In this document: positions 2,168 through 63,100 of the stretch, in pieces
How the letters are laid out: the number at the start of each line of letters is the position of its first letter
Numbering within the stretch: the first letter of the stretch is position 1
Assembly (NCBI GenBank): GCA_965263355.1
Contig: CBDHHL010000034.1
Coordinates: 17,299 to 81,298, forward strand
Direction: 5' to 3'
Length of the DNA: 64,000 nucleotides
Source of the DNA: Leptolyngbyaceae cyanobacterium
GTDB taxonomy: Bacteria; Cyanobacteriota; Cyanobacteriia; Phormidesmidales; Phormidesmidaceae
Program-made: the position numbers and the translations under genes
Notes under the pieces: generated by a model
The model's database searches: none
Seen by the model: the letters and a program-made list of their open reading frames with translations, nothing else
What the model was told of the DNA's origin: nothing

Positions 2168-2560
2168 GTTGGTTACCATAGACCTGTAGCACTTGGAGCA
2201 CAACATCATGATCGTAATCGGCGGCATTGCAGGCGACACCGGCCTTATTGGTGGGGATACTGGTTATTTGGGCGGGAGTACAGCAGGCTAATCAAATGAC
2301 CATCAAATAGCCAAACTCCTGTCCTTGGTGGCGTCCGGGCATCTCTCCGTAATTCATTACGCTGACTCATCAAATGGCCTGGTACCGTAATGAGTTACGG
2401 TACCACCCAAAACAAAACCTCAACCCTAAACCCCAATAAGCCCGCTGCCAGCCCTAGGCGTCTGATATCGCGAAAGCAGCGGGCATGGTCATTGTAGCGG
2501 AGATCTCCCAGGCATAGCAAAACCGCCAGGGCATAGCTCCAGCGGCTGTTTAATTTGCTA

Positions 2561-2601
2561 TTGACACCCCTAACTTGATTGTTTATGATGCAATCAAGTT
2601 A
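2561..2601 (+). promoter_or_regulatory. sigma70-type promoter overlapped by an 11-bp inverted repeat operator
   Basis: TTGACA (2561)-17 bp-TATGAT (2584); TAACTTGATTG-N9-CAATCAAGTTA at 2571-2601. Confidence 0.75.
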
Positions 2602-2753
2602 CTGAGGAAGATAAATGTTTATTGCACAGAGTATCACTACCGGCGCATACGTTGAGATTAGCGCTCGCTATTCCTTTGAAGTCGCCGAGCAGGCACCCGA
2701 GGGATACACCCGAATCATGAAAAAAGAGGCGGCGATCGCCTGGGGGTACATTA

Positions 2754-3017
2754 ATGCCTAACCACGGAGGCAAGCGACAGGGGGCAGGCCGAAAGCCCTC
2801 TGGTCGTACAAAACGGGTAGGGCCGTTCATGCTGTCCCCTGAGGCGGCGGAATGGTTGAACACGCAGGTTAATAAAAGCGAAGCAGTTGATAAGTTGATA
2901 CTGGAGAAAATACAGAGCCAACAAAAAACGCAGCCTCGAAAGACTGCGTTATCTATCCATCAGGTTGGCTTTATTCTAACTTGGGGTTCCCGACCCGATA
3001 GCAATGACCAGATCTAA
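2754..3017 (+). CDS. small DNA-binding protein (GGxRxGAGRK, AT-hook/RHH-like)
   Basis: HGGKRQGAGRKP motif followed by strand-helix-helix pattern. Confidence 0.6.
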   Translation: MPNHGGKRQGAGRKPSGRTKRVGPFMLSPEAAEWLNTQVNKSEAVDKLILEKIQSQQKTQPRKTALSIHQVGFILTWGSRPDSNDQI

Positions 3018-3158
3018 AACAACCTGCCCTGCCCCAGCGCTGATTAGGCTGTCGGGAGTGCTGCCCTCTAGCTCTCTGTGTGGGGCCTTAAGCCACTTTT
3101 CGGCCTCATCGTCGCTGTATCCGTAGCTAATCAGAAGGCTTTTTATTTTTTGTCTCAT
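2976..3158 (-). CDS. stand-alone MbcA/ParS/Xre antitoxin C-terminal (DUF2384-like) domain
   Basis: AEKWLKAPHRELEGSTPDSLISAGAGQVVLDLV fits the W-L-x-x-P...L-x-G-x-x-P signature. Confidence 0.7.
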   Translation of the reverse strand: MRQKIKSLLISYGYSDDEAEKWLKAPHRELEGSTPDSLISAGAGQVVLDLVIAIGSGTPS

Positions 3159-3828
3159 ACTGTCTCCAAACTCGCAAACTGAAAATTAAGCATTGAGCCG
3201 TTGGCAAATCTCACCCTGGCCATTGTTAGACCAACGCTAACAACAGTACCTGTCTGACCTGCGTACGGGACTTGCCACTGAGTCAGCCTTGTAGCGTCAG
3301 AGTCTATAGTCACTGTGTCGCCTGGGCTCATCGTCCTGATCCTGCGCCTAATCCAGCAAGGCTACTGGCTGTTTTTATTACTGTCCCTGTCGAGTCTTCT
3401 AGCTGCCATCGTCCCGTATCTTCGTTGTAGCAAATGAATTGAGCGTTTGCCGCATCTTTCGCTTGTTGTTTGGGGTCCTTGCGTTGCATAATAATTTATC
3501 CTTCCTTTGTGGTGGGTACCCGGTGGCCAGCTGTCAACTCTCCACCGGGTTGAAATTAAACTTTTTCTATCGTCGAGTTTGGATAATCGGCTTTAGCTTC
3601 TCGGAAAGCTTGGCCGATATTTTCGTGTGAATATTGCACAACCAATCCGTCAATCAGAAAGCTGTACGTTGTTGTCTGTTGTCTTGCTTGGGTCATAAGT
3701 CTTTCCAAAAAGTTCAAGCAGTAGCGACTCCGAAGAAATCACTTCTGGCTTTGCCTCCGCATCGACAGCAGCACGATTTAACGCCGCATCGATGCTCCTT
3801 CCTTCTAGCAAAGAGCTGAGTAGTTCCA

Positions 3829-4113
3829 TTAAATAAACTTCCCCGTCCCCTCTTTGGACCCGCGAGTCCGAGTTGTCCTCCAACGGCCCTCATATTTACC
3901 AGGATCTCCAAAAGGGAGAGGCTTCGGCGTAGGCAGTGGCTTGGTGATCGACTGTTGATAGATGCCGATTTGCCTTAAAGCAACTTCGTCCCACCAGCGG
4001 CCATAGAGCAAGGTTTCGCCAGTGGTTCGGTCAAAGTCGAGGTTGACAATTTCGCCTGAGCTATTTCGATAGGGTCGTTGGATGACCCTGGGTGTGCTTG
4101 GCTGTTGTTTCAT
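3829..4113 (-). CDS. hypothetical phage protein
   Basis: ORF in the leftward early operon. Confidence 0.45.
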   Translation of the reverse strand: MKQQPSTPRVIQRPYRNSSGEIVNLDFDRTTGETLLYGRWWDEVALRQIGIYQQSITKPLPTPKPLPFGDPGKYEGRWRTTRTRGSKEGTGKFI

Positions 4114-4322
4114 AGTTCACTGAATAGTTGTGGGTAATCGTTCATTGCTTGCCGGACCACTCTGCCGCGTTCTTCTAGTGTTTCTGATGGCAGTTGAACC
4201 AGCGCTGCGTATCTGTCTATTGATAGGTCCAGGATCTGTTGGTCCCCAGTTGGGTCTATGTTCTGGGCCATAGTCTGGGCAACCTGCTTCTTCCACTGCT
4301 CAGTGCTAAGAGTTTTTGCCAT
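4110..4322 (-). CDS. hypothetical phage protein (probable start MAKTLS)
   Basis: G-rich RBS-like stretch before ATG, overlap with next gene. Confidence 0.5.
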   Translation of the reverse strand: MAKTLSTEQWKKQVAQTMAQNIDPTGDQQILDLSIDRYAALVQLPSETLEERGRVVRQAMNDYPQLFSEL

Positions 4323-4671
4323 GCTGCCCCCGTTGGATTTTAGGCAGCAGCGGGCTGCATACCTGAGCCCTAAGCCCAAGTAGCTCCCCCGATTGATATG
4401 CAGTTTCAGGCTGCTCTACCACCCCATCGGTTGGGGGTGTAATTGGTTCATTTCTCATATGTTCTCCTTATTCGTCAATTCTCCCTTTCCAGGGAATGCC
4501 CCAAGTCCGCACTGCCCGGACGGCCACGCTGTCTGTGGTGGCTGCACTGTGCTGGGGTGGTTCGTTAGATGTTGTCGTCTATCTCTATTTGGCTTTCAAC
4601 CCGTGGCCAAAGCACCACGTACAACGCCCCAATAATTAACGGTGTGGCGAGGACCAAAGTGGCTACTAAAA

Positions 4672-4941
4672 TTAAAACTTCAAACATTGCGTTTCCTCCA
4701 TCGGTTTCGTCGCCAATCTCGCTTTACCTTGGTCTGTTTTCTTGTAAGCCTCGCGAGCGGCTACCCTATAAGGTAAATTGCCACGCTGGCGGTCATAGGC
4801 TTGATAGTACTCAAGCTTCGCGGCACGGTTTTTGCGGGTTCTAGCCTTAACGCACTCTTTGCAAAGCGTCTTGTTGCTTTTGTAGAAATACTCGGAAAGG
4901 CTTTTTACCTCTCCGCACTTTGTGCACTTCTTGGTAGTCAT
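4672..4941 (-). CDS. Zn-finger protein resembling the N-terminus of phage HNH nucleases; no HNH domain visible
   Basis: KKCTKCGEVKSLSEYF...LCKECVK; ends without a catalytic HNH region. Confidence 0.55.
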   Translation of the reverse strand: MTTKKCTKCGEVKSLSEYFYKSNKTLCKECVKARTRKNRAAKLEYYQAYDRQRGNLPYRVAAREAYKKTDQGKARLATKPMEETQCLKF

Positions 4942-5338: not shown

Positions 5339-5907
5339 GCCGCAGCTCCTCCCTGTACACCCTTTTCAAACGCCTGAATCACTTCGTCATACTTCGCTTT
5401 GGTTACGTCGTCGCTAGACTCAAATCCAAACGACTTGAGCAAACCCTTAGAAGAGTTCTTGTCAAACCCATTCTGATTAGCGATCGCATACAGTCGTTTA
5501 CGCTGGCCCTCACTAATTAAGTTGGGGTTTCTTTTTGGTGGTTGAGCCGCGTTACCATCGTCGTCCTCGTCCGCGCTAATCCCAAGGATCGCCGATAGAG
5601 AATAACGACGGGCATAGGTGATTGCTGCGCCCAGCTTCTGCATATCCTGAATGTTGGGCAGCATTAGGAAACTTTCCAGCTTTTCCCCTGATGAATGCCA
5701 GAGCGTAGTTTTAACCCCCTGACCAGAGTCCATAGGCTCAGTAACCTGGGTTACAACCAAATCGTTCTCACACAGAGCATCCAGCACCGCAGTATTGACG
5801 CTATCCAAGCTTGCGTAACGGTTCTTGAAATGCGGATTTACCTTATCCTTTTTTATTGGCTTAAAGCCTTTCCTGGCCTTAATCAAAGCCTTAATCAGAT
5901 TTTCCAT
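5335..5907 (-). CDS. ERF-family ssDNA annealing recombinase
   Basis: GAAITYARRYSLSAILGI...EDDDGN ERF motif. Confidence 0.9.
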   Translation of the reverse strand: MENLIKALIKARKGFKPIKKDKVNPHFKNRYASLDSVNTAVLDALCENDLVVTQVTEPMDSGQGVKTTLWHSSGEKLESFLMLPNIQDMQKLGAAITYARRYSLSAILGISADEDDDGNAAQPPKRNPNLISEGQRKRLYAIANQNGFDKNSSKGLLKSFGFESSDDVTKAKYDEVIQAFEKGVQGGAAA

Positions 5908-6832: not shown

Positions 6833-7214
6833 CTTCGATCTGCCAGTCGTCAAGGTAGCTCTCCCAAGTGGCGTAGTTAACCAAGCTTGCGTCAGGCACG
6901 TACTGAGACAGCCAGCATTGGATCATATTGGCCGCTAGTCCAAAACCAGCGCCAATGGTGAGCTTCATCGAGAAGTCCTCGATAAAGCCCTGGCTATCCT
7001 CACGAACTGCATAAACCCAATATTCCGTGGCAGCATCAGCATCCAGTACCGAAGCATGAATGCCATGAGGGAGGCTCTGCCAGCTGCCATTAACATCGCA
7101 GCATGGGCCGCATGGGGTGAGCTGGGATACTGGCAATCCACATCGAGGGATAACTGTAACTCGGTCGCCCAGGGGGGCTATATATTCCGCTTCGTAGGGG
7201 GCGGTGGTGGTCAT
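6819..7214 (-). CDS. hypothetical phage protein, first gene of the leftward early operon
   Basis: GGA RBS-like sequence; lies directly downstream of the operator cluster at 7234-7275. Confidence 0.55.
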   Translation of the reverse strand: MTTTAPYEAEYIAPLGDRVTVIPRCGLPVSQLTPCGPCCDVNGSWQSLPHGIHASVLDADAATEYWVYAVREDSQGFIEDFSMKLTIGAGFGLAANMIQCWLSQYVPDASLVNYATWESYLDDWQIEDEPF

Positions 7215-7233
7215 ACTTGCGATTCCTGCGAAC

Positions 7234-7275
7234 TGGTTATAATGTAACCACTAGGCAAGAATTTGGCAAGTACTT
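7234..7275. promoter_or_regulatory. oL-like operator cluster
   Basis: TGGTTA-N5-TAACCA (7234-7250) and AAGAATTTGGCAAGTACTT (7257-7275); both motifs recur at 8252-8311. Confidence 0.65.
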
Positions 7276-15174: not shown

Positions 15175-16180
15175 AGCACCTTTCCCTTGGTTTGGCGGGA
15201 AAAGTCGAGCCGCCCATTTGATCTGGCAAGCGTTTGGGGACGTCCCAAACTATGTAGAACCGTTCGCGGGCAGTCTGGCCACTGTGTTGTTACGGGAAGG
15301 GTACGATCCGTTGCAACATACTGAAACAGTCAACGACTTAGATTGTTATGTCGCCAATTTTTGGCGTGCATTGCAGCATGACCCTGATAGCGTTTCCCAT
15401 TGGTGCGATCAGCCAGTCAATGAAGCTGACCTACATGCTAGACATAAGTGGCTGATCTCTCGTACTGATTTCAGGGAAAAGATGCTAAGAGATCCTGACT
15501 TTTATGATGTCAAGGTTGCTGGCTGGTGGGTGTGGGGGCTGTGCTGTTGGATTGGCTCAGGGTGGTGTCGTCTAGATGAGGCAGCTTCAACACAGCTACC
15601 TCATCTAGACGACACTGGGCGGGGAGTTCATCGCAAAAGGCCCGATTTACGTTTCGGTCGGGGAGTTCATCGCAAAAGGCCTCATTTAGGTGACACTGGG
15701 CAGGGAGACTTGCTTGAGTATCTTCATGCACTGGCTGACAGGCTGCGGCGTGTTCGTGTTTGTTGTGGGGACTGGCAACGGGTTTTAGGCCCATCTCCTA
15801 CCCATAAAATAGGGCTTACAGCAATTTTGTTAGACCCACCCTATCGTCAGGATTTAAGAGCGGATCTTTACTCAGTAGAAACTGAAGTGAGCGAAAAAGT
15901 TGGAGAATGGGCGACGGAGAACGGGAAAAACCCTAGCCTAAGGATCGTGTTGTGTGGCTATGAGGGTGAACATAAGATGCCTGGAGACTGGCGTAAAGTG
16001 CGTTGGAAATGTGGAAAAGGATACGCAGGACAGAACACTAAAGCGGAGAACAACAATCGAGACCTAGAAACACTCTGGCTGTCTCCAGCTTGCTTGCCTG
16101 TGGACGGCGAGTTCTATATAGACGGTCGAAAAACTACAAGCAAAAAACAACTGGATATTTGGGAGGTATTGACAGCATGA
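15164..16180 (+). CDS. Dam/D12-class N6-adenine DNA methyltransferase
   Basis: PFPWFGGKS, YVEPFAGS, VNDLD, LDPPY; GGAGG RBS before ATG at 15164. Confidence 0.88.
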   Translation: MKLKAPFPWFGGKSRAAHLIWQAFGDVPNYVEPFAGSLATVLLREGYDPLQHTETVNDLDCYVANFWRALQHDPDSVSHWCDQPVNEADLHARHKWLISRTDFREKMLRDPDFYDVKVAGWWVWGLCCWIGSGWCRLDEAASTQLPHLDDTGRGVHRKRPDLRFGRGVHRKRPHLGDTGQGDLLEYLHALADRLRRVRVCCGDWQRVLGPSPTHKIGLTAILLDPPYRQDLRADLYSVETEVSEKVGEWATENGKNPSLRIVLCGYEGEHKMPGDWRKVRWKCGKGYAGQNTKAENNNRDLETLWLSPACLPVDGEFYIDGRKTTSKKQLDIWEVLTA

Positions 16181-18737: not shown

Positions 18738-18908
18738 CTTGACACCTGCTTAACACACCACAAAGCATGATATCATCATTGTTGTACGCCAAGGGTTTAG
18801 CCCTGGCTTAGGAAATAATGCACAACTAAGACGGCATAATGGTAGATCTTTCTCGTCGTGAGTAGATTGTTCCAGCTCATTGAAAGGGATCGAAGTTGAT
18901 TTAGCTAA

Positions 18909-18932
18909 AATACCTTACGATTGTAAGGTATT
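18909..18932. promoter_or_regulatory. perfect 10-bp-arm palindrome, probable PadR operator
   Basis: AATACCTTAC-GATT-GTAAGGTATT, 17 bp upstream of the padR-like ATG. Confidence 0.7.
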
Positions 18933-18949
18933 AATTATAGGGCTATTCC

Positions 18950-19264
18950 ATGGCACAGCTAGACCTAACTAACACGCAGGAACTATTGATGACCGTTATC
19001 GAGCATCAGCGCTTGTATGGGCTAGAAATTTGTGATTCAATCGATAAAGCAACAAATGGCCAACGCACAATCCCTGTTGGGTCTTTATATCCGATATTAA
19101 AACGCTTAGAGAATAGAGGTTTTGTCACATCTGAATGGGGCGAGGCTACAGAAAGCGGGGAAGGGGCGCGACGAAAATATTACTCTCTGACTGATGCAGG
19201 AAAAGATTTTTTGAATAAAACACGCGCCATTCGTGAGTTAGTGAATGCAGCTGCTGGCAACTGA
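18950..19264 (+). CDS. PadR-family transcriptional regulator
   Basis: LYGLEI, GSLYPILKRLE, GARRKYYSLT. Confidence 0.92.
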   Translation: MAQLDLTNTQELLMTVIEHQRLYGLEICDSIDKATNGQRTIPVGSLYPILKRLENRGFVTSEWGEATESGEGARRKYYSLTDAGKDFLNKTRAIRELVNAAAGN

Positions 19265-19279
19265 AAATCGGCATCCATC

Positions 19280-19492
19280 TTATGGCTGGGCCGATTGCTC
19301 TATCCAGCTTGGGACGTAATCGGTTCTATCGCAGTTCATTCCGTATTCCTGAATCAAAGGCAGAAGGAGCCTGTCGGCTACCCTTGATAGCTCCTCGCTC
19401 AGCAGCACTTCAATCGGAATGTTTAGCTGTTGAGCTTTAGTCAGGGTTTTTGAGCGTATGGAGATGGTGATTGAGGAGGCTTCTGTCATCAT
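19280..19492 (-). CDS. small protein translationally coupled to the Cas12-like gene
   Basis: ATGA overlap with the effector stop; strand-helix-helix pattern (ITISIRSKTLTKAQQL). Confidence 0.5.
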   Translation of the reverse strand: MMTEASSITISIRSKTLTKAQQLNIPIEVLLSEELSRVADRLLLPLIQEYGMNCDRTDYVPSWIEQSAQP

Positions 19493-21183
19493 TCCGTAAT
19501 TCCTCTTTTCTTGTGGTTCCTTGCGGCGTTAACATCTGCATTTTGCTTCTGTTCAAATAGGCTACAGCTCTCATTTACGCAAATAAACGTGTCTTGGTCT
19601 GGCCTGATGCCTTTTCCCCCGCAACAATGACAGCGTTGTGATGAGTATCTAGCCTCCGTCTCTATGTATAATTTCCCGGCTTCCTCTAATTTAGATTTTG
19701 TTTTAGTTCTAAGGTCGCCCATACAGGCTATTTTCAATGATCTGTTCAATCCTGCCTTAGCTGTTCTGCCGTTTTGCTCGTAATAACTTCCATCTTCAGC
19801 TAATTTAGGCGTTGTCTGCCTCCCCATGTTAGTTAACGCCGTAGCCTCCCAGGCGATGACATCATAAGTTCTGGCTAACCTGGTTGACAGCTTATGATTG
19901 AAAGCATTTGAACTATTAACAGCTCGCTCATGCAGCCTGGATATTTTATTCCTAAGTTTTTGCTCGTTATTAGTGGCTTCACGCTTCCCACGCTTCCATA
20001 TTTGTCCTAGCCGCTTATCATTTTTTTCAGTCATAATGTCAAGCTTGGATTGCAGCTTTTCAATATGATTGTGTATTCGTTGTCTGCTTTCGTTAGGATT
20101 AAATAAATGACCTTCGTCAGTCGCTACAATTGCCTTAACGCCAGGGTCAATGCCCGCCATATGCCCGGTTCGTTTAGCGCATTTTGAGTCTTCTATTAGC
20201 AAGTATGGCAGCTCATTTTCTATTGACTTTTTCTTGGCTAATGCCGCTTGATAGTCTTCACTGTTAGCTAACGCCTTGGCTTGCTCCTTTTTCCCTTTAA
20301 TGCCATCAATAACTTTTTTCTTGATAGCGATTAAAACTCTTTTTTGTCGTTTAAGCTCTAATCTATTTTCTTCTTCCGCTTCACTTTGAGTAGTTAGGCA
20401 TAGATAGAAGCCACTCGGTTTTAATATCAGTTTGTAAGTCTTTATTACATAGCCTTCGAGTCTTTTTGAATAGCTGCGATCGCACGGTTCTAAAACTAAG
20501 CCTTGACCGTCGAATTGTCCTTTTTTGAACGGGATGGCTTTTTGATTATTGTTCAGCGTGCTAATTTTACACTGCTTGCCGTCCTTATACTTTGGCTGCT
20601 TTCTGGCGGGCAGTTTCCCGTCTAAATAAGCCTTCCAGGCAACCTCAAAGTCAGCTAGTAGCCCCCCAACAAAATCACTATTGCACGTTAATTCATCAAG
20701 ACCCTGAGAACTTCGTGACGCATTTAGCAACGCCATATTGTCTAGTCCCCATGATTTCCCCTTTAGCCCACGTATTAATGGGACGCCTTCCTTGAAATAA
20801 GGGACTTCGATATATTTATGGGGTTCTGGCTTTATCCGCTCATATGGCTTATCCCCAGCCACTAACTCATAGCCAAGTTTTGTTTTGCCATCGCCATAGT
20901 GAATCAAAGGGGCTTTATCTGACTTCTTAAAATACGGACCTCCTTTAGCAATCTGACAAGCTGCGCCATTCCAACCGCCACTCTTTGAAAAGCGTAACGG
21001 CGTTCTAATGCAGCCTGATAAGTCGACGCCTTTCTTTTCTGCCCAGGCATACCACTCAAGGCAATGATTATGTAAGGCTACGGCCCGCACATAATTCCAC
21101 AACCATTCAAGCTCTCTGCAAATTTTCTCGTATTTAATCAGTGTTTCAGGGGTCGGCTGGACTTTTACCTTGATCGTCTTCAT
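19489..21183 (-). CDS. compact type V CRISPR effector, TnpB-derived (C2c8/V-U2-like), 564 aa
   Basis: TnpB-type N-terminus MKTIKVKVQPT...WLWN; RuvC-I GIDPG, RuvC-II IAWE, Zn finger CHCC...C...C, RuvC-III NADVNAARN; adjacent to an array and anti-repeat. Confidence 0.85.
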   Translation of the reverse strand: MKTIKVKVQPTPETLIKYEKICRELEWLWNYVRAVALHNHCLEWYAWAEKKGVDLSGCIRTPLRFSKSGGWNGAACQIAKGGPYFKKSDKAPLIHYGDGKTKLGYELVAGDKPYERIKPEPHKYIEVPYFKEGVPLIRGLKGKSWGLDNMALLNASRSSQGLDELTCNSDFVGGLLADFEVAWKAYLDGKLPARKQPKYKDGKQCKISTLNNNQKAIPFKKGQFDGQGLVLEPCDRSYSKRLEGYVIKTYKLILKPSGFYLCLTTQSEAEEENRLELKRQKRVLIAIKKKVIDGIKGKKEQAKALANSEDYQAALAKKKSIENELPYLLIEDSKCAKRTGHMAGIDPGVKAIVATDEGHLFNPNESRQRIHNHIEKLQSKLDIMTEKNDKRLGQIWKRGKREATNNEQKLRNKISRLHERAVNSSNAFNHKLSTRLARTYDVIAWEATALTNMGRQTTPKLAEDGSYYEQNGRTAKAGLNRSLKIACMGDLRTKTKSKLEEAGKLYIETEARYSSQRCHCCGGKGIRPDQDTFICVNESCSLFEQKQNADVNAARNHKKRGITE

Positions 21184-21346
21184 TATTTTGTACGTCGTTT
21201 TGTGGCAGCTCTGGCAGCATATCAATAAAGCGTTCCAATAGGTCTGCTATCGATATATCCCAAAGTCTACAATACTGCTCTAGCTTTTGTTTACGGCTTT
21301 GCTTGATGCGGGCGTAAATCCTGCCTTCTCTATTCTCTTTTCCCAT
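21146..21346 (-). CDS. ribbon-helix-helix (CopG/Arc-like) regulator
   Basis: GRIYARIKQSRKQKLEQYC...SIADLLERFIDML; overlaps the effector start. Confidence 0.75.
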   Translation of the reverse strand: MGKENREGRIYARIKQSRKQKLEQYCRLWDISIADLLERFIDMLPELPQNDVQNNEDDQGKSPADP

Positions 21347-21362
21347 TTATATTAAAAAATAC

Positions 21363-21391
21363 TTGGCGTACAAAATATAACACGCTAATAT
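21363..21391 (+). promoter_or_regulatory. probable promoter for the tracrRNA/array
   Basis: TTGGCG-17 bp-TAATAT; contains CGTACAAAATA, the inverse of TATTTTGTACG at 21184-21194. Confidence 0.5.
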
Positions 21392-21397
21392 AAGGAC

Positions 21398-21680
21398 ATC
21401 GCAGTTTGGGCGACAAGGCAGCGGAAACGTTGTTGGATGGCTTCAGCGCTAAGGTTCTCTAGGGGGCTATGGGTATCTTTTGTCGGGAAACCGATAAACA
21501 CCAGCCGAAAGGCAAGATAGGAGCAAAAGGAGTCCGTAAGGCCCTTATAGATTCGCCGGATCTATGGCGAACAGTCTCAACTTTTTTTGGCAAAGCTAAG
21601 CGAGGCCAAAAGAAGAACCTTGAAAAACAGGGATTAAAGCTTTGGCAAAATTGCCATTTTCTGAGCTTTGCCAGAATCGC
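21398..21680 (+). ncRNA. candidate tracrRNA (ends approximate)
   Basis: Four GNRA-capped hairpins (21417-21434, 21481-21496, 21504-21513, ~21533-21542) and a 19-nt perfect anti-repeat AGGGATTAAAGCTTTGGCA at 21629-21647. Confidence 0.75.
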
Positions 21681-21719
21681 TCATAAAAGCCTTGCGGCTA
21701 AAGGGATGCAGCTGTTTAC

Positions 21720-21975
21720 GCTGCCAAAGCTTTAATCCCTACCAAGGGACTGAAACGCACCTGGTGGAAACGAACTATTAGCCATGAGCCAAGCTGCCAA
21801 AGCTTTAATCCCTACCAAGGGACTGAAACCTGTTATTGGCTTGAGCTGGTCTATGCGGTCCTGAGCTGCCAAAGCTTCAACCCCTACCAAGGGACTGAAA
21901 CTGTAACGTTCCCTGATTTGCGGGGCATGGTGCTATACGCTGCCAAGGCTTCAATCCGTTTCAAGGGGCTGAAAC
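21720..21975 (+). CRISPR. CRISPR array: four 37-nt repeats, three spacers (36, 35, 37 nt)
   Basis: GCTGCCAAAGCTTTAATCCCTACCAAGGGACTGAAAC at 21720 and 21793 (identical), 21865 (2 changes), 21939 (degenerate trailer). Confidence 0.96.
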
Positions 21976-22026
21976 CAAAGAAGACATGGACTCTAGTTAT
22001 TACTCTCAGCTAGCTTGGGATACTAG

Positions 22027-22257
22027 TTGTGTCAACGAGCCCATTCTTCCAAAATGATAGAAATTATATCTCGACATAGTTATCGTGAGTCCTTAGATTC
22101 TGAGGCGCAAGAGCAAATAGTTACGTTATACGTAGATCCTGAGACTGAGCAAGGGAGACTAATAGAAACAACAGACGGCGTTGAAACAAACCGAATAGAG
22201 CTATCTGCATTAGCAGTCAGTAACCTGTTTGACGCGTTAAAAAACAATGGCGGTTGA
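22027..22257 (+). CDS. hypothetical protein
   Basis: Short ORF after the array, convergent with the FHA gene. Confidence 0.4.
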   Translation: MCQRAHSSKMIEIISRHSYRESLDSEAQEQIVTLYVDPETEQGRLIETTDGVETNRIELSALAVSNLFDALKNNGG

Positions 22258-22259
22258 AG

Positions 22260-23132
22260 TCACTCCGTAATTCCTTTTAGCCCGAGTATAGTTACGACTG
22301 ACCCCACGATTAGCGTAGACCACTCGAATATGTTCTTAATAGTTTCGTGATCCAGGTTCAGTGCGAACGCCGCGATTGCAGCCAATGATACGCCAAGTAC
22401 AAGCATCATAAGCTTGATTTTTTTCTCAGCCTTGCGACGTGCGAGTAGCTGGGATTCTTGCTGACGGTTTAATGCACGCTCTTGCTCCAGCGTGCTACTA
22501 AGGTCTAGCAAAACGGAGCTTTGTTCATTAAGCTTTTGGCCAAACTCCTCACGCTCTTTGGAGTATTGAACCTGCATGCGCCCCATGGCTTCAGTGAGCT
22601 TTTCTAGCTGGTATTTGGCCTGCGTGGCTTCCTGTTCGTAGATCCGCCGTTCCATTTGAATAGCTTGGAATTGCTGCAGCGTTGGGGGATCCGTATCATC
22701 TCCCGGCTCTTTTTCTGCAGGCCACTCAAGGAGGCAATAGTACTTTGAGTCAATTAAATCATTTTGGAATTTAGGAAAAATAGTGATGCTTCCTGCAAGG
22801 CCAGGACGGAGCTGCATGAATCCAGTCACAGGACGATGGCCAACCCATACTCGTTGTTTCGACGGCTTCCATTCGCCGTCGACTAAGTGGCCATCGTGAA
22901 CAAAATAATCCCAGCCCCTGGGACTTGCCGGGTTCTCTTCTGCTAACAAAGTGCATTGACGAGAGCTAATCCAATTTTGGCAGCGAGCACCGACCCCAAT
23001 CTGAATGTGATTTTCTGCAGGTTCAGCTCTGCCAATCGTAATTGGCCCGCGCCTGAGCCTTTCTAGCGAGATTTCGTGTTGCTGATCACTCCCACCTATT
23101 TCGGTTATCAGCAGATACTCTTCGGCTTTCAT
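22260..23132 (-). CDS. FHA-like domain, coiled coil, two C-terminal TM helices
   Basis: ITIGR...WISSRQCTL...V.DG...SKQRVWV (degenerate FHA); Q/E-rich coil; two hydrophobic segments. Confidence 0.65.
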   Translation of the reverse strand: MKAEEYLLITEIGGSDQQHEISLERLRRGPITIGRAEPAENHIQIGVGARCQNWISSRQCTLLAEENPASPRGWDYFVHDGHLVDGEWKPSKQRVWVGHRPVTGFMQLRPGLAGSITIFPKFQNDLIDSKYYCLLEWPAEKEPGDDTDPPTLQQFQAIQMERRIYEQEATQAKYQLEKLTEAMGRMQVQYSKEREEFGQKLNEQSSVLLDLSSTLEQERALNRQQESQLLARRKAEKKIKLMMLVLGVSLAAIAAFALNLDHETIKNIFEWSTLIVGSVVTILGLKGITE

Positions 23133-23197: not shown

Positions 23198-23722
23198 ATG
23201 GCCACTATCCCAGACAGTTCAGGGTTACCGACAAGCGGGACAGGTGCTGGACGGAGACTTACTCGCGCTGATCTCCAGGCAATGATCGACAAATCGGTCA
23301 CAAGCAGTATAGGCGAAGCGTTTCGACTCTCTGGGCAAGCTGACGAGCGGAATGCTGCTAGACTCCGAGACTTGGAAGCCAGAATGGAGACTTTAATAAA
23401 GAAAGTCTCTGACAGCAGCTCGACAATAGCAGAGATAAAGGCTGGCTACGACGAATACAGGGAATGGGGCAGCAAAGTGGCTGAGGCTGTAGCGGCCACT
23501 GAAGGCGACGCTAGAACGCTGCACAGGACCATGGAACGGGTTGATGGGCTTGTTGAGATTGCTCAGTTGTTATTGAGAGTACTAGAGCCAACAAGCAGGG
23601 CGATCAACTGGATGATCGACCGATTGCATCGACTGGACAGGAGAACATACAGTCACAAAGATGGGGCAGATATCACCAACCTAGTGAATGGCCCCCGACG
23701 AAGAGCGAGTGATCGCGGGTAG
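23198..23722 (+). CDS. coiled-coil protein with Arg-rich C-terminus
   Basis: Helical heptads; ends LDRRTY...NGPRRRASDRG. Confidence 0.6.
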   Translation: MATIPDSSGLPTSGTGAGRRLTRADLQAMIDKSVTSSIGEAFRLSGQADERNAARLRDLEARMETLIKKVSDSSSTIAEIKAGYDEYREWGSKVAEAVAATEGDARTLHRTMERVDGLVEIAQLLLRVLEPTSRAINWMIDRLHRLDRRTYSHKDGADITNLVNGPRRRASDRG

Positions 23723-24768
23723 TGGCGCAGGTCGACCAAATAGGTAACCCTGGGCCATGTCGCAGCCGATTGCTTTCAACATGTCGGCCTGTTGCTGGGT
23801 TTCCACGCCTTCAGCGATAACTTTGATGCTGAGTTTTTGCGATAGCGCCACAATTGCGTCAACCATTACTCTGGATTCGCGAGCAGGCAGGCCACTAATA
23901 ATAGATCGGTCGAGCTTTACCAGGTCAACTTGGCCTTTCAGCAATCTATCGTAGCTGCAGTATCCGGTCCCAAAGTCGTCCAGGGCGATCTTTACGCCTT
24001 TCCCCTAGCTGACTGAATCCGGCTCTGAATCTCCTCAGAAACAGCCTCAGTCTCCAATATCTCCATATGCCCTCCAGTAGGCAGCTTTTGATCGTGCCAA
24101 TCTGCTCTAGCTAGAGTGAACGGTGAGATATTAAAGCTGATCCACTGGCCAATCTTGCTTGAATCTGCCTGGGTTTTCTCGATCACCCAGTAGCACAGTA
24201 AATGCTCACTGTTTGCCTTTCTCAGTAAAGGCAAGAAATCCCCTGGGAAGATTAATTCATTGTCTTTTGCCCATCTTGACAACGCCTCATAACCAACGGT
24301 CTCATCGGACCTTAGGTCAACTATCGGCTGATAATGCAGGGCAAATCCGTTGTTGTTAATTGCGTATTTTATTTCTGAAAGCCTTTGTGTTTCAACCTCT
24401 GTCAGCTCTTTGTCGCCCAGTTTACTGACTTGGGAAAAGAAATAAAGGAATTCTCCAGACTCAGAATGGAATCCTTCGCAGTGCAACGTGCAAGAAATCC
24501 ATTCTGCTGTTTGTCCATGCTTATAACGCTTTTTCAGCGTGAAAGATTTAAGTTCTCCATTGATTACGCTGCGGAATGGGTTGACCTGAGGCGTTAGATC
24601 TTCAGGATGGCTGATCTGCTGGAACGTTAGGCGCAGCAACGTTTCTCGTTGATAACCCAGTATTTCACACAGAGTCTCATTTACATCCCAGAACTTTCCG
24701 TCTGGCCCAACAATAGCAGCCCCTATCAGGCTGTTCCGTTTAAGTAGCTCTGGGATTCTATGCATCAT
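23681..24768 (-). CDS. PAS-EAL c-di-GMP phosphodiesterase split by a -1 frameshift near 24000
   Basis: PAS (VNETLCEILGY, SHPED); YQPIV, GYEALSRW, SFNISP, MEILE in frame 0; GVKIALDDFGTGY, VKLDRS, IAEGVET, QGYLFGRP in the -1 frame. Confidence 0.88.
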
Positions 24769-42205: not shown

Positions 42206-42624
42206 GATACGTATGGAGCTTCAAAGCCTAGGGTGTTGTCCTCGTTCACATCAGCCTTAAAAACCAATTTTACTCGGTCTCCAGCGTCTGCGTTGCTGTA
42301 CTGGGGCTGCCCAAAGGTTCGATATAACCTCCAGCCATTCCCGTCATTGATTTGCCATAGCTGATCAGGGCCGATCTTCGTTTGCCAGTTGGAACCCAGG
42401 CATTTTTTTAGAGTTTGCTGAGGGATTGACGACTCCCATGTGTCTAGCAATTCCGTATCTTCTAGCTGGAACCTAATATCAGTGCTCCCTACTTGCCCTA
42501 GGTGACTGAGCAGTGGCGATGGCCTAACCTCTTGTCCCTGGACTGTTCTCAGTCGAGTATTGCGCAGCCCAGCAGACTGGCAGAGGCTGTCGAAGTAGGG
42601 GCCGGTTAGATACTGGAAGTTCAT
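42202..42624 (-). CDS. probable head closure protein
   Basis: Size and synteny; ATGA overlaps. Confidence 0.45.
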   Translation of the reverse strand: MNFQYLTGPYFDSLCQSAGLRNTRLRTVQGQEVRPSPLLSHLGQVGSTDIRFQLEDTELLDTWESSIPQQTLKKCLGSNWQTKIGPDQLWQINDGNGWRLYRTFGQPQYSNADAGDRVKLVFKADVNEDNTLGFEAPYVS

Positions 42625-45533
42625 GCAGCGTCCCCCTTAGGCCATAACACTTTACGAGACCAATAATTAGGACTCCATGGGTCATCTTTGGTCAGGTTTC
42701 CATCCTTATCTCGGATGCCTGCGGATCGGTTCAGGTAATTTGCTTTGGCTTCAGGGCTGTAATTATGGCGATAGTCTTTATCTCCAAATGCGATGAGCAT
42801 CACCCGATCACCTTTTTTGGCAAGCACCTGACGCTTTTTGCCTTTTTGAGTAGCAGGAACGTCCTTATCAATCGTCCACCACTGGCCACGGTATTTTACT
42901 TTGCCATTGCGGCGAGGGAGGGTTGAGATAAGAGTGCCTTGTGCATCACTGCGTTTTTTCTTGGCCTTAGCTTTCCGTTTTGGCTGTGGCTTCTTAGGCT
43001 CGGAGCTGAGTCTGGAAATAGACTTCAGCTGACGCCTTAGGTCATTCAAGTTAGCCATTTGCTCATCACTCCCACCCCTGTCTGGATGGATCTGTCGAGC
43101 AAGATTTTTGTAGAAGCTATCGACAGACTCAGTTGAGCTAATATCTTCGTCTTTAACTCCAAAGTCTTTTATGTCTGCAATTTCAAATAACCCATTCTTT
43201 AGCCAAAGCCCAGGGTCGGCTTTCCCTTTCAGCGCACTTCTGACTTCAGCGGCGATAGATTCACCTTCTTTCCTTTTCGCTGAAATATCTTCTAGCGACA
43301 CCATTGGCCTGTTTTTGTGCGCAAGAAGTCGCTTTTTAATTTCTGGAGTCAATACGTCGGTCGGCTGAGCGATCTTCTTTGGCTGAGCATTTTTCTTGCT
43401 TGTACGCTTCCCCCTAACTTCTTTTACCCGTTTTGCAGTGCCTTTTTTTGCTCGTTTACAGCCTTTCCCCTCGGGCTTTTTCATCCCCACCCAGCCCCTC
43501 TGGGCATTACAAGGTGTCCCGGCTTTCTTCGCATCAACCTTAGCTAGTGCGTCGACCGCTGCGTCCCATTCACGAGAGTCGATACTAAAGTAGCTGCCAT
43601 TAGGCCCACGGAATAGAGTTGATTCGCCCTGTTTTTTGCTTAACCGAACTGGTGTGTTAGCCCGCTTAGGTTGCGGGGCTTTAGTGCGCTTGAACATCTC
43701 GCGGGATAGGTTAGCGGCCTTTTTACGGATACTGCTTAACCCCTGGTCGCGACCCCAGCGAGACTCTAGTTTTTCTGCTTCCATGGCTAACTCACGGGCT
43801 TGACGGGCTCGCTCGTCGGGGTCTTCGATAGCGCGAACCGCTTTAATCTTTTGGTTGAATTCGTTGGTTAGGTTTTTGCGTTCCCCCGCAGCAGCTTTCT
43901 TTTTGGCAGCTTCGATTATTTCTGCAGGAGGTTCTTTTATCTTCAGCGTGGCTCCACCCTGGCCCATCCGCTTAGCTGCGTTCTTCTGGGAGCTGCCGTA
44001 CTTTTGGTTGTACTTTTCTGTGGCCAACCGGTATGCCGCTTTAAGAGGCATCGGTTTTTCGCCAAAAATCTCTACCTTGGTGACTTTCCCGTTTTTATTG
44101 GTGTCGTAACCTTCTAGTTCTGAGATAAAGAAATCGTCAGCGTTTCGATACCACTTACTGCGGTCATCAGGGTTATTTCTTATCCGTTCATGCTGAGCAT
44201 TTTTACCCTCTGCCACCCAGTCCCCAAATGATTGAGGCGCGTTCGGGTCCAATGATTCCCCGCCTTCCTCTGACTTGGGTATTTTTTTGTAGGCCGATTC
44301 AAATGCCAGGTCTTTCCCTCTCGGTGCCTTTTTCTTCTGGCTGCGTACTGGCTGAGGCTTATCGGCTGGGAATAGGCTTAGCTGCCCCCTGCGTTCTGCT
44401 TTCTCGGCAGCAGTGATGGTACGAGCTTTCGGAGGTTCGGGGTTCTTACCCCTGCGTTTACGCTCGATACGACGCACTCTGGCAGCCGTCCCAGGCTTAG
44501 CTCTTCGGCAACCTGGCTTAGTCCCTACCCACCCCCGTTGGTTATTGCAGGGCGTGCCGGTTTTGGCGTCTAGCTTCAGCATCGCCTCCAACGCATCCTT
44601 CCTAGCTTTTTGGCATGGTTCGCACTCACAGTCATCGTTACAGCCTTTCTTTCGTCGTCGGGGTTTAGCGTCAGATTTAGTCAGCATGGGCACTCGATAC
44701 TCTTCTAGCTCAGCCAATGAGATTTCACGCATCCCACCAAAAAACTCTTTAGGCATGGCCTGCCCATAAATCATGCGTGCTTCAGCTGCATCATTAACAC
44801 CGATAATCATCTTCTCCTCATCAAATGCGCCATCGATTACCTGATCCACCACGAACACCAATGGACTAGCCAGGTTGGTCCCCACGTACACATCAACAGC
44901 CATACCATCAGCTCCACGGGTACGACGAAAGTGACCATAAGCAGCAGGTAAAACACGGCCATGACGCTTCTCAAAAGGCAGGTACTGTAGACCAATTTCA
45001 AAGCCTTGCCATTTCAAAATACGCTTGACAGGAGTAGCGTCATCAGTGCGAGGCTTTTTTCTGTATTTTTCGTCTTCATCCTCAGCTTTGTAAGCGAATT
45101 CGTCGATGTCATCATCAGTTAGGTGAGGCGCTAACTTGATGTATTTTCTATATAATTCGATACTTTTTTTTATGTCTTTAAGCTCTTGCTGAACTCCTTC
45201 TGTGTCAGTCTCCATGGCACTTTCTGCTACGTCTGGGCCCTCCTTGATCCAACGCTCTATGTCTTTCATCCCCTGAAAATCATCATCAAGTTGCTTGTAG
45301 ATATGCTTTGACATTCCTTCGTTAGTGTCCCGAATCCATTCACGGGCGGCAGTCTCGTCCCAATGACTATCAATAAAGTCGACGATTGCCTTTTTCCGGG
45401 TTGCTTCGTCCCGTAGATTGGGGCCTTTTTTGCGAGCCTTCGATCTCACGCAGCTTCCTAACGTGCCACTCCAGCTTCCCTTGCAAGGGCGGCTGTCAGT
45501 TCTTCGTTTTGGGGCGAGTGCTGTGGTTGTCAT
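42621..45533 (-). CDS. 970-aa modular head protein: InPase-like domain, Cys/Trp repeats, J-domain, DUF5754-like C-terminus
   Basis: YGHFRRTRGADGMAVDVYVG...FDEEKMIIG; YKNLARQIHPDRGG; KKRQV...IAFGDKDY...YLNR...SPNYWSRKVLW. Confidence 0.75.
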   Translation of the reverse strand: MTTTALAPKRRTDSRPCKGSWSGTLGSCVRSKARKKGPNLRDEATRKKAIVDFIDSHWDETAAREWIRDTNEGMSKHIYKQLDDDFQGMKDIERWIKEGPDVAESAMETDTEGVQQELKDIKKSIELYRKYIKLAPHLTDDDIDEFAYKAEDEDEKYRKKPRTDDATPVKRILKWQGFEIGLQYLPFEKRHGRVLPAAYGHFRRTRGADGMAVDVYVGTNLASPLVFVVDQVIDGAFDEEKMIIGVNDAAEARMIYGQAMPKEFFGGMREISLAELEEYRVPMLTKSDAKPRRRKKGCNDDCECEPCQKARKDALEAMLKLDAKTGTPCNNQRGWVGTKPGCRRAKPGTAARVRRIERKRRGKNPEPPKARTITAAEKAERRGQLSLFPADKPQPVRSQKKKAPRGKDLAFESAYKKIPKSEEGGESLDPNAPQSFGDWVAEGKNAQHERIRNNPDDRSKWYRNADDFFISELEGYDTNKNGKVTKVEIFGEKPMPLKAAYRLATEKYNQKYGSSQKNAAKRMGQGGATLKIKEPPAEIIEAAKKKAAAGERKNLTNEFNQKIKAVRAIEDPDERARQARELAMEAEKLESRWGRDQGLSSIRKKAANLSREMFKRTKAPQPKRANTPVRLSKKQGESTLFRGPNGSYFSIDSREWDAAVDALAKVDAKKAGTPCNAQRGWVGMKKPEGKGCKRAKKGTAKRVKEVRGKRTSKKNAQPKKIAQPTDVLTPEIKKRLLAHKNRPMVSLEDISAKRKEGESIAAEVRSALKGKADPGLWLKNGLFEIADIKDFGVKDEDISSTESVDSFYKNLARQIHPDRGGSDEQMANLNDLRRQLKSISRLSSEPKKPQPKRKAKAKKKRSDAQGTLISTLPRRNGKVKYRGQWWTIDKDVPATQKGKKRQVLAKKGDRVMLIAFGDKDYRHNYSPEAKANYLNRSAGIRDKDGNLTKDDPWSPNYWSRKVLWPKGDAA

Positions 45534-60127: not shown

Positions 60128-63100
60128 ATGGTCGCTCAACGCAAGCTGCAGTTAATCATTGAGATTGTCACAAAGCAGCAAAAGAAAATTGCCGAATTAA
60201 TCTCACAGCTCGAATCGCTAAACAAGGCGGCCAAAGACAGCGGGCAGATTGGCGGGGACACGAGACAGATAGACCAGTTGCTTGGGAAAATCCAAGAACT
60301 TGAGTCAGAGCTGGCCAGTTTATCGGGGCAAGCGAAAAAGTTTAATAGCGAAACAGCTAAGGGAGGGAGGCCAACAGCTCAGGCTATCACTGCGATCGCC
60401 ACTTCATTCTTGGCTGTCCAGTCTGCGCTACAAGGTGCTTTTTCGTTAGCCCAAACCTTCTACTCAAAGACCATTGGCTTGAGTGAACAGCTTAACCAAC
60501 AGCTGCTTAAAAATGCTGCCAATATTGCAGCGACTAGCCGAGTAGAAATTGGCGGCAACCTGGTTGAAGGCGTTGAGGCAATTAAAGCACTCCAGCCAGA
60601 ACTAAGGACGGCACTACAAGAACTAGAAAAACGCACCGAAAACATCGCAGGCGTTACCGATCAACAAACCGTGACAGCATTTGATGCCGTGATCGGTAAG
60701 GTGGGGATGCTCAATGGCCAAACCCAGCAATTTAGTAACACGATTGAAGCGTCTACCGAGTTAGCAGCCAGCCTAACGGCTGCACTGTCGGCCAACAATC
60801 TGAGCGATACAACGCAAATTTATCAAGAGATTGGCGATTTAATCACGGGCGACATTACGGCTGATTCCCAGTTAGCCCGAGCGTTGGCAATTGACCGTGA
60901 AACGATCCAGCGATGGCAGCAGCAAGGCGTTCTGGTTGATGAGTTGATCAACCGGCTAAGCGGGTTTGAAGATGCGGCCAATTTAGCATCTAACTCAATC
61001 AGCAATGTATCCAGCAACTTTATTTCCCTGACAGAGCGTATTGCCAGGGAGTCCACAGCAGACCTATTGGACCCAATAGCCAATGGCCTGCTTGAAATCT
61101 TTAACCTGGTCAGCGAGAACGAAGGGGCTATTGTTGCTGAAATACAGGTCGCATTAGAGGCAATTAGCGACATTGCCGAGGAAATTGGAAAGATATTGTC
61201 TCCATTGGCTGATTTGGGTGACGAAGCAGAATACGTGTTGGCCCTTCTTTTGGATGGGTTTCAAGCGATAGGGCGACTGCTTGAGATATTTGGCCCTCAG
61301 ATTCAATCAGTTCTGGCTGGGGCGGTCGATAAGGTTGAATTACTTGTCGATACAGTCCAAGCACTTGGGACAGCGTTTAATTTCGTTTTTGGGGGGCTGC
61401 AAAACGTTGATGATGCATTGGCAGCTTACGGCAATGCTACAGAGGTAGCTGCGGCGGGCTCGCAAAAGCTGATTGATTCGATTGAAAATGCTGGAGACAA
61501 ATCTGAGTCCGCTCGAAGACAGCTCAGGACTTTGGCTGAGGACCAGATTGCAGCAAATGAAGCGCAGATCGAGTCACTTAGGGAGCTGAGCCCTGTCACT
61601 GAAAAGCAGCGTGCAGCGATACGTTCTCAGATTGAAGCCCTTGAAGGATGGAACGATAAGTTAGACGAATCCACAGACAGTCTTCAGGACGTAGGAAACG
61701 ATCTTAAAGTATTGGCTAGAGAACTCCCTGACGTAGCTGATACCTTCGAAGAAGTCGCTACTCGCACTGACAGCGCACTGAAGAATCTAGCCGACGGTTC
61801 TAATGGCACCCTTGAAAAAGTTTCTCAGAACATCAAAACGCTTCAAGAGGGCATCAATCAGTTATTCGATGCTGGGGAATTGTCTGGGGAAGATGCAATT
61901 TCCAGGCTTAATAAAGCGATTGAAGCACCTGGCTTAGAGCTGGGCCAAAAATTAGCCTTAGCGAATGAAGTACGAAAAATTCAAAAGCAGGTTAGCGACG
62001 AGAAGTTAGCCAGCATCGAAACGGAATTATCGGCGGTTGAAGCTGGTCTTTCAGAGGAAGAGAAAGGAACCGCTGATGCCATTGGGCGCGCATCGGCATT
62101 AAGGCAACAGGCGCTAGAACAGCGGATCACCCAAACTAGAGAGGCGATCGCTACAGAAAAAGAACTGCTTGCCCAGGATGCAGGCTCTCAAAGAACTCTA
62201 AATGAACTCCTCAATCAAGAAAAGCAATTAACGGCTGAACGAGAAGCGTTGAACCGTGACTCGTCCCGACAGATCCGTGAAGCTCAAGTTGCGGAACGCA
62301 AAGCAGCTATTGATAGTGAAATTTCATTAGTTCAAGCCCAGATTGACCAAGAGGAACAGGCCACAGCTGAACAAATTACACGATTGAATCAGCTTAGACA
62401 GCAGTCTCTACAGGAGCAGATCACAGCACAGAGATCGTTGGTTGAGGAGTTAACCAGTAGCAATGCATCCGATGCCGCTATCGCTCAGGCTAAAGCTCAA
62501 GCTCAGACGCTTCAGGCTGAATTAAAAACATTAGCGGTCCAAGGGCAACGCGAGATTGAGCAAGCTCGCATCGCTGAGATAGATCGAGCCCAAGACGACA
62601 TTCGAGATATTGCCCTCAATGCCCGTCGCACAATTTTTCAGGAAGAGCAGCTACTGCTGGCAGAACGTGCTAAAAACGCTGAAATCACAGAACAACAGAT
62701 CCAAGCCCGTATCGGTCAGCTCAGGTCTGACGCTGAACGGGACAGGATAGCACAAGAAATTCAATTACAAGAGCAACGGGTTGAAGTATACGAAGAAGGC
62801 TCCCGTCGCCGTCGACAGGCCGAAATCGCATTATCTGAATTACGAATTCAGCTTTCTGAGGCCAATGCAGCAGAAGAAGAAGCCGCCCGTGCTTCAGCAG
62901 TAGCCGCTATCGATACCCAGATAGAAGACGAGCAGCGACTTCAGGGCTTGCAACAGGAACGACTAAGGCTAAGGGAGGAGGCTGAGAGTCGGGTTATCGC
63001 CTCGCTCAACCAACAAAAGGACTTATTTGAGTCCCAGCTGGGGCTTATCCGTGAGCGCAATAGCTTAGCTCAGTCATTGGCTGGCGCTGATACAGCTGAC

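Follow-up and report, generated by a model that had tools for sequence, protein, structure and literature searches.

What RNA is encoded upstream of the small CRISPR array in this 64,000-nucleotide stretch of DNA (the window, throughout this text), and through which of its parts would it meet the repeat? The initial annotation had proposed a plus-strand tracrRNA of about 280 nt, running from 21398 to 21680, with several GNRA hairpins and a perfect 19-nt anti-repeat as its defining element. Every motif that it quoted is found at its place, including the GNRA hairpins at 21417-34, 21481-96, 21504-13 and 21534-41, and the 19-mer indeed matches the reverse complement of repeat positions 3-21 without exception. 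Judged from sequence and predicted structure, we are highly confident that the first part of this region forms the core of a tracrRNA belonging to a type V-P (Cas12p) system that is encoded by a phage. The coordinates of all features are collected in Table 1.

Table 1 Features of the Cas12p-family locus, in window coordinates.
Feature	Position	Strand	Basis or detail
Left 19-bp direct repeat (89% identical)	19489..19507	.	encodes the effector's last residues
Cas12p-family effector gene	19489..21183	-	564 aa; homology to 9JFS/9JG3
Predicted tracr promoter	21363..21391	+	TTGGCG (21363-68), 17 nt, TAATAT (21386-91)
Putative tracrRNA core, about 180 nt	21398..21578	+	covariance-model match 21398-21579
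GUUU in the stem 1 loop, putative R:AR-1 pseudoknot partner of repeat 3' AAAC	21404..21407	+	nine of nine loci
Stem 2, GAAA cap	21417..21434	+	predicted fold; hairpin at the same place in relatives
Stem 3, GCUU 21440-43 / GAGC 21521-24	21440..21524	+	locus alignment; inner fold predicted only
Stem 4, GNRA loop GUAA (21536-39)	21527..21546	+	GNRA there in nine of nine loci
Stem 5, UUCGCC/GGCGAA, conserved loop	21552..21571	+	covariation
Short anti-repeat CAGUCUC, putative R:AR-2, pairs with repeat positions 27-33	21572..21578	+	nine of nine loci
Shortened cyanobacterial-type leader	21579..21719	+	T7-TTGGC at -133, GAACCTTG...CAGGGATT, GCCAGA at -50
Perfect 19-nt second anti-repeat to repeat positions 3-21	21629..21647	+	exact reverse complement
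CRISPR array, four 37-nt repeats, three spacers	21720..21975	+	repeats 100, 100, 95, 84%
Right 19-bp direct repeat	22260..22278	.	end of the neighbouring 290-aa gene

The effector gene beside the array points to the type of system. Its best solved relative by phmmer is the Cas12p structure 9JFS (E 8e-113), with the next-best chain at E 4e-9, and its predicted structure (pLDDT 87.7) ranks 9JG3 (E 2e-44, TM 0.74) and 9JFS first in Foldseek. Identity to a prototype-type protein (L005) is 44-45%. In the alignment the RuvC triad is intact (D346/E446/D550, equivalent to D378/E478/D582 of the prototype), the PAM residues D148/N213/Q214/K289 align to D197/N261/Q262/K332, and the thioredoxin-binding C76 is conserved together with W44, Y45 and W47. 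By analogy, host thioredoxin is probably bound to the effector in action. A FastTree phylogeny of 77 sequences and 450 aa, rooted on TnpB-like hits, places the effector inside the Cas12p clade with a support of 1.0, in a sister subclade shared with L001; this subclade is without the ~50-aa REC insert of the prototype. The domains are of the TnpB/Cas12f type, and the best NCBIfam matches are C2c8 and guided_TnpB. An assignment to C2c8 (V-U2) was rejected, as the NF038192 score of 172.5 bits falls below the cut-off of 350. On sequence homology, the effector is a Cas12p homolog (type V-P).

Relatives of this protein were sought widely. Alignment-based scans returned mostly generic TnpB: of 79 viral loci 12 held full-length relatives, and of 80 metagenome and 80 genome loci one each. 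When a profile was made from the N-terminal half, it matched one of 401 genomes of the phylum, namely the seed genome, and did not find the family in the other 400; a single-protein locus search gave no matches. This left 14 loci with full-length relatives (L001-L012, L080 and L160), of which eight were compared with the window after four near-duplicates and two loci truncated before the array had been dropped.

A covariance model of the RNA was built from six relatives, with the window and L001 left out. It gave one match in the window (44.3 bits, E 5e-9), and it also found L001. With filters off, the match divides into two (24.9 and 12.2 bits), probably because of a long insert in stem 3. 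A 5' motif, an AUG-stem 3, a stem 4 capped by a GNRA loop, a stem 5 with a conserved loop and a short anti-repeat are common to the window and all eight relatives, and these conserved elements come in the same order in all nine loci. Because the model match stops at 21579 and family conservation ends at 21578, the core is about 180 nt long rather than 280; the tracrRNA identity given in the initial annotation thus stands, but its length does not, and a 3' end at 21680 is unsupported. Cores of the prototype subclade measure 118-122 nt and that of L001 141 nt, compared to 180 nt in the window. The greater length in the window is mainly due to the stem-3 insert, which comprises 77 nt with two GAAA hairpins, compared to 18 nt in the prototype and 18-42 nt in relatives.

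We could map the published structure onto the window because the nucleotide numbers of the prototype (7G-10U; 42U, 43U and 64G; 77C-79A; 118 nt) fit L005. In both L005 and L006, the protein has the N-terminus of 9JFS, and the L005 core, counted through its short anti-repeat, is 118 nt, which is the length reported for the structure. The GNRA loop of stem 4 corresponds by homology to the one docked on stem 3 in the prototype structure. In stem 5, all 48 cells in eight sequences are paired, four of the six pairs are changed on both sides, and none of 500 shuffles scored as high. An ATAGAT/ATCTAT helix that the initial annotation had drawn overlaps this covarying TTCGCC/GGCGAA stem (21552-71) and yields to it, at -1.7 compared to -8.2 kcal/mol. 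The stretch 21398-21756 has a folding energy z of -4.3. The unconstrained minimum, which breaks stems 3 and 4, is more stable than the homologous fold by 6.5 kcal/mol; the TATCTT/AAGATA junction is present in this unconstrained fold and sits in the lineage-specific insert. None of 4227 Rfam families matched at gathering score. The stem-5 pattern was found in 13 viral stretches, 12 of them known relatives and one (L249) a chance match without the gene.

Transcription of the core is predicted to start at 21398, 7 nt past the -10 element, and this position equals nucleotide 1 of the prototype tracrRNA. The -10 element aligns with that of the relatives, seven of eight of which have TTGACA at -35. 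The -35 element of the window is weak, and the site was not picked up by a sigma-70 promoter scan, which also gave no other match on the plus strand before the array. Together with the covariance model, the aligned promoter and the matching 5' end agree with a plus-strand tracrRNA starting where it had first been placed. Its proposed co-transcription with the array is plausible, given one conserved promoter upstream with no other sigma-70 match, and by analogy with the joint precursor described for type V-K in the available part of PMC9938897. We also see a 17-bp inverted pair (88%) at 18782-18798, upstream of the recombinase gene, and at 21357-21373, in the -35 region of the tracr promoter; it lies near the gene for a PadR regulator (18950-19264) and is possibly a shared operator. 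In one contig run there is an allele that skips most of padR, from 18843 to 19225.

By homology, the effector would bind two short pairings that the initial annotation had missed (21404-07 and 21572-78), each of them involving the repeat's 3' end. The GUUU stands at tracr positions 7-10, as in the Cas12p structure, and the repeat ends in AAAC, a match seen here as complementarity only. The short anti-repeat forms six or seven of seven pairs with its own repeat in all nine loci, the repeats themselves differing, and in the predicted precursor it pairs with repeat 1 at a probability of 0.70; in an energy matrix, the own repeat ranks first or joint first for it in only five of nine loci. The core anti-repeat continues for ~30 nt in L002, L003 and L160, and stops after 7 nt in the window.

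The sequence between core and array (21579-21719) is the leader. Of 301 genomes of the phylum, 11 contain a pattern taken from the leaders of relatives, at 12 places in all: eight lie 189-197 nt before an array, one lies farther away, one is a leader at a contig end, and two are unrelated. From their motifs, we take the host-leader loci to be V-K (eight) or I-D-like (two). GCCAAA and TTGGC motifs are described for type I-D leaders, in which distal motifs raise spacer acquisition, in the available part of PMC6607411. The T7 run was considered as a terminator and rejected: it lies 10 nt past the last stem, it is unlisted by the scan, and host leaders start with the same T-run/TTGGC. There is further variation in leader length, in that L003/L004/L010 and L005/L006 are without a ~55-nt proximal block present in L002 and L008, and their arrays hold differing spacers. 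The window leader is also ~55 nt short, at another place than in either of these groups.

The spacers of the array are 36, 35 and 37 nt long. Exact 19-nt target scans gave 0, 1 and 0 matches, and the single match is probably due to chance, as it covers 20 of 35 nt and lies behind AAT, not GTN. Nothing significant was found for the spacers in phages, plasmids, the window or the cassette junction, and these scans yielded no credible protospacer or PAM. Two observations on relatives concern their arrays. In L009, a spacer (5398-5433) matches the locus's own cas12p (4128-4163) at 35 of 36 nt, behind TTG and not GTN, and matches sibling cas12p genes at ~91%. In L005, a second array with a different repeat (6930-7262) directly follows the Cas12p array.

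It is in the leader, outside the conserved core, that the 19-mer lies. Its chance expectation is 0.02 even when 3 mismatches are allowed; the five matches are itself and the four repeats, and apart from these the repeat is matched over 12 nt at most anywhere in the window. The 19-mer opens with the 7-nt leader motif AGGGATT (the right arm of the distal motif) and goes on with 12 repeat-specific bases. The predicted precursor gives a probability of 0.86 for its pairing with repeat 1 and of 0.001 for the hairpin of repeat 1, in keeping with the competition that the first reading had suggested. The homologous leader site makes a strong duplex with its own repeat in four of eight Cas12p loci (window -33.2, L002 -25.3, L003 -26.2 and L160 -23.7 kcal/mol), with none of 300 shuffles in each as good, and in these four the own repeat is the best of the eight. 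As L002 and L003 are close relatives, this amounts to about three independent cases. When the shared AATCCC is removed, the own repeat is best in four of eight loci, and L003 drops out. The duplexes of the relatives contain G-U pairs and bulges. In L005 (p 0.07), L009 and L012, with p 0.07-0.15 across the three, the leader anti-repeat is weak or absent; it is borderline in L008 (p 0.04), and L001 is without the motif, so the element is not needed across the family. Among host leaders, p falls below 0.05 in only one of nine (p 0.023), with none stronger, and for those with an array found the longest perfect repeat match is 6-8 nt. On balance we lean slightly towards an RNA role for the 19-mer, which would probably open up the first repeat and provide a duplex for processing.

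Chief among the other explanations of the 19-mer is the neutral perfection of an inverted repeat, in which AGGGATT happens to complement AATCCCT, template switching or gene conversion perfected the match, and repeat copying spread it. This would suit the gradient along the array, where the match is 19/19 in the two leader-proximal repeats and 17/19 and 16/19 in the older ones, which both share a C at position 14. L009 and L012 moreover keep AAGGGATT although their repeats are without AATCCC, and no strong counterpart of the 19-mer exists in prototype-type loci. The imperfect matches of the relatives, with their repeat-specific G-U pairs and bulges, fit RNA pairing better than recent DNA copying, however, and we consider neutrality rather unlikely.

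It is also conceivable that the 19-mer acts as DNA, either as a repeat-like leader site or through a leader-repeat cruciform, placing host Cas1-Cas2 for integration. It does begin inside the conserved distal leader motif, distal motifs boost type I-D acquisition as far as PMC6607411 is available, and cas1/cas2 were not found among the 87 of 125 window ORFs scanned. Host leaders are without such complementarity, though (6-8 nt perfect, with eight of nine not significant), and the G-U pairs of relatives point to RNA, which makes this an improbable explanation.

Still less credit can be given to a single tracrRNA of ~280 nt whose essential anti-repeat is the 19-mer and which is bound by the effector via the 5' half of the repeat. 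The 19-bp duplex is the strongest available (-32.2 vs -9.6 kcal/mol), and the prototype single-guide RNA used a 185-nt tracr that reaches beyond the 118-nt resolved core (bioRxiv 10.1101/2025.01.20.633832, available part). Against this, the structure is described there with only 10 nt of the repeat, conservation in the family ends with the core, and a 19-mer-like element is missing from several relatives. With the bound pairings lying elsewhere by homology, and the 19-mer lying in the leader, it is unsupported as the defining anti-repeat. Equally unsupported as a helix is the 13-nt inverted repeat at 21585/21664 that was thought to enclose it: the arms are complementary at 12 of 13 positions as text, but their pair probability is ~1e-6 in the predicted precursor, and they overlap the leader DNA motifs TTGGC (-133) and GCCAGA (-50). 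Finally, although an ATG-initiated open frame of 88 aa exists at 21469-21735, its coding for a small protein instead of an RNA can practically be dismissed, since the frame has no Pfam match, extends into repeat 1 and takes a 1-nt insertion behind 21581 in related contigs of three of three runs, and since conservation across the region is structural (stem 5 covariation).

We therefore return to a Cas12p tracr core combined with an accessory leader anti-repeat and a shared precursor, a proposal that we regard as likely when taken as a whole. Transcription of the tracr would start at a promoter of its own and probably yield one precursor that extends through the leader into the array. Cas12p would bind the five-stem core, which would hold the last ~11 nt of the repeat by pairing 4 bp in a pseudoknot and 6-7 bp in a duplex; by analogy the spacer would then guide double-strand DNA cleavage beside a GTN-like PAM. 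For the prototype, binding via the repeat 3' end, a GTN PAM and TrxA dependence are described in the available part of bioRxiv 10.1101/2025.01.20.633832. The 19-nt anti-repeat, lying outside the bound core, would open the repeat hairpin and so free the 3' end for the core. Trimming of RNA duplexes by RNase III is a general mechanism, and the 19-bp duplex may be trimmed by a host double-strand RNase of this kind. New spacers may be gained from host Cas1-Cas2 reading the leader, and the system may be used against competing phages.

The surroundings of the locus are those of a phage genome, with genes for terminase, portal, capsid, DnaB, ThyX and a serine recombinase. The window is a probable cyanobacterial virus; we infer the cyanobacterial host from named homologs, the XisF-like recombinase and the cyanobacterial-type leader. 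In 87 of the 125 window ORFs (at least 75 aa) that were scanned, the remainder being mostly overlapping alternative frames, there were no Cas1, Cas2, Cas4 or Tn7 families and no TnpA. A type V-K CAST was rejected on the same scan, in which tnsB, tnsC and tniQ were not found, and on the intact RuvC triad, Cas12k being nuclease-dead. Other features of the window include a PAS-EAL gene (23681-24768, minus strand) that is broken into two ORFs of 258 and 87 aa and is unusual phage cargo, a 22-bp hairpin and repeated 28-36-nt blocks within an adenine methyltransferase gene (15565-15707), a 970-aa protein with an InPase domain (42621-45533, minus strand) that adjoins the portal gene, and two long stretches (61174-64000 and 2168-4900) that are ORF-free or have short ORFs only.

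The tracr and array lie upstream of the effector gene and are divergent from it; in all 12 relatives with enough DNA, gene, tracr and array follow each other in this order on one strand. As the 19-bp direct repeat flanks this unit, the effector and the 290-aa gene share their final four residues. An Atlas search with the 290-aa flanking gene gave weak FHA leads. The cassette comprises 2.8 kb (19477-22266), and in two of three runs, from one sample, contigs join 19476 to 22267 without it, by a weak joint with a side of 24 letters at 85% likeness; the three contig sets derive from a single study with two samples at most. These empty alleles would fit either an insertion with duplication or a loss via the repeat.

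Further copies of the scaffold occur in cyanophages. Cr-LKS4 (OQ625504.1) and CrV-01T (MH636380.1), covered by loci L240, L241 and L287-L306, carry a Cas12p relative that is 34-41% identical and has no array closer than 1.5 kb, and this effector nests inside the CRISPR-using clade of the tree. Genome-wide, the tracr model matches 11 times in Cr-LKS4 and 13 times in CrV-01T, with 10 and 12 strong matches respectively. Among the 20 copies compared, all have GUUC for GUUU, and nine end in GGAAC soon after stem 5, followed by unrelated DNA; promoter-like sequence precedes the copies displayed. From their sequences, these copies look like natural single-guide RNAs. We tentatively suggest a wider picture, doubtful as yet, in which the borrowed-leader stretch is both a DNA signal for host Cas1-Cas2 and a co-evolving RNA anti-repeat that refolds the first guide and matures it in cis, replacing the long core-contiguous anti-repeat of L002, L003 and L160. 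The Cr-LKS4 and CrV-01T copies would be single-guide versions of the same scaffold, the transition between omega-RNA and tracr/crRNA would run in both directions, and the 2.8-kb cassette would be mobile between phages as a unit.

The locus offers a 564-aa member of a second Cas12p subclade with exact coordinates for single-guide design, indicates cyanobacteria as hosts of Cas12p-bearing phages, and shows a large insert to be tolerated in stem 3 of the scaffold. The bases 21636-47 are a testable element for pre-crRNA maturation, and the leader is one for spacer gain without cas1. The apparent single-guide copies dispersed in two described cyanophages provide a direct handle on the TnpB-to-Cas12 transition. 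In its available part, bioRxiv 10.1101/2025.01.20.633832 describes Cas12p with twelve members and hosts unknown, gives no account of guide maturation or spacer acquisition, and neither mentions cyanobacteria nor treats pre-crRNA processing. Our literature search found no other primary study of Cas12p in cyanophages, of its leaders or of its tracrRNA; the preprint supplements may already show the subclade or the leader anti-repeat.

Among known systems, type V-K (Cas12k, CAST; PMC9938897, available part) is alike in having a tracr with its own promoter, a T-run/TTGGC leader and an array, with a joint precursor there. It differs in that the window is without Tn7 genes and has intact nuclease residues, and in the distance of TTGGC in the leader (133 nt in the window compared to ~189-191 nt); the tracr covariance model (R1) gave no match on the four host-leader loci given. 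The I-D leader shares the distal TTGGC motif and a GCCAAA-like motif ~50 nt before the repeat, as described in the available part of PMC6607411. In contrast, the window leader is ~55 nt shorter, contains an anti-repeat, and serves a type V array without adjacent cas1/cas2. With TnpB omega-RNA, C2c8/V-U2 and Cas12f there is RuvC and zinc-ribbon homology, and omega-RNA is likened to stems 1-4 and 6 of the Cas12p tracr in the available part of bioRxiv 10.1101/2025.01.20.633832. Unlike in those systems, the guide in the window is split into tracr and array; the C2c8 score is below the cut-off, and TnpA was not found among the scanned ORFs.

The nearest likeness is to Cas12p itself (V-P, 'Cas12 hacker'; bioRxiv 10.1101/2025.01.20.633832, available part; 9JFS, 9JG3). 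Shared features are a phage-borne effector of 500-700 aa with the same fold and key residues, a 37-nt repeat ending in AAAC, a tracr that starts 6 nt before GUUU, the order of stems, the stem-4 GNRA and a short second duplex. The window differs in its 44-45% identity, in the missing ~50-aa REC insert, in a core of 180 rather than 118 nt, in the 19-nt leader anti-repeat, in the divergent layout, and in an effector C-terminal tail that is replaced by the duplicated gene end. In short, the RNA is of a known kind and larger than its studied relative, and what is unusual here is the perfect leader anti-repeat, the long insert, the divergent layout and a repeat-flanked cassette that has empty alleles.
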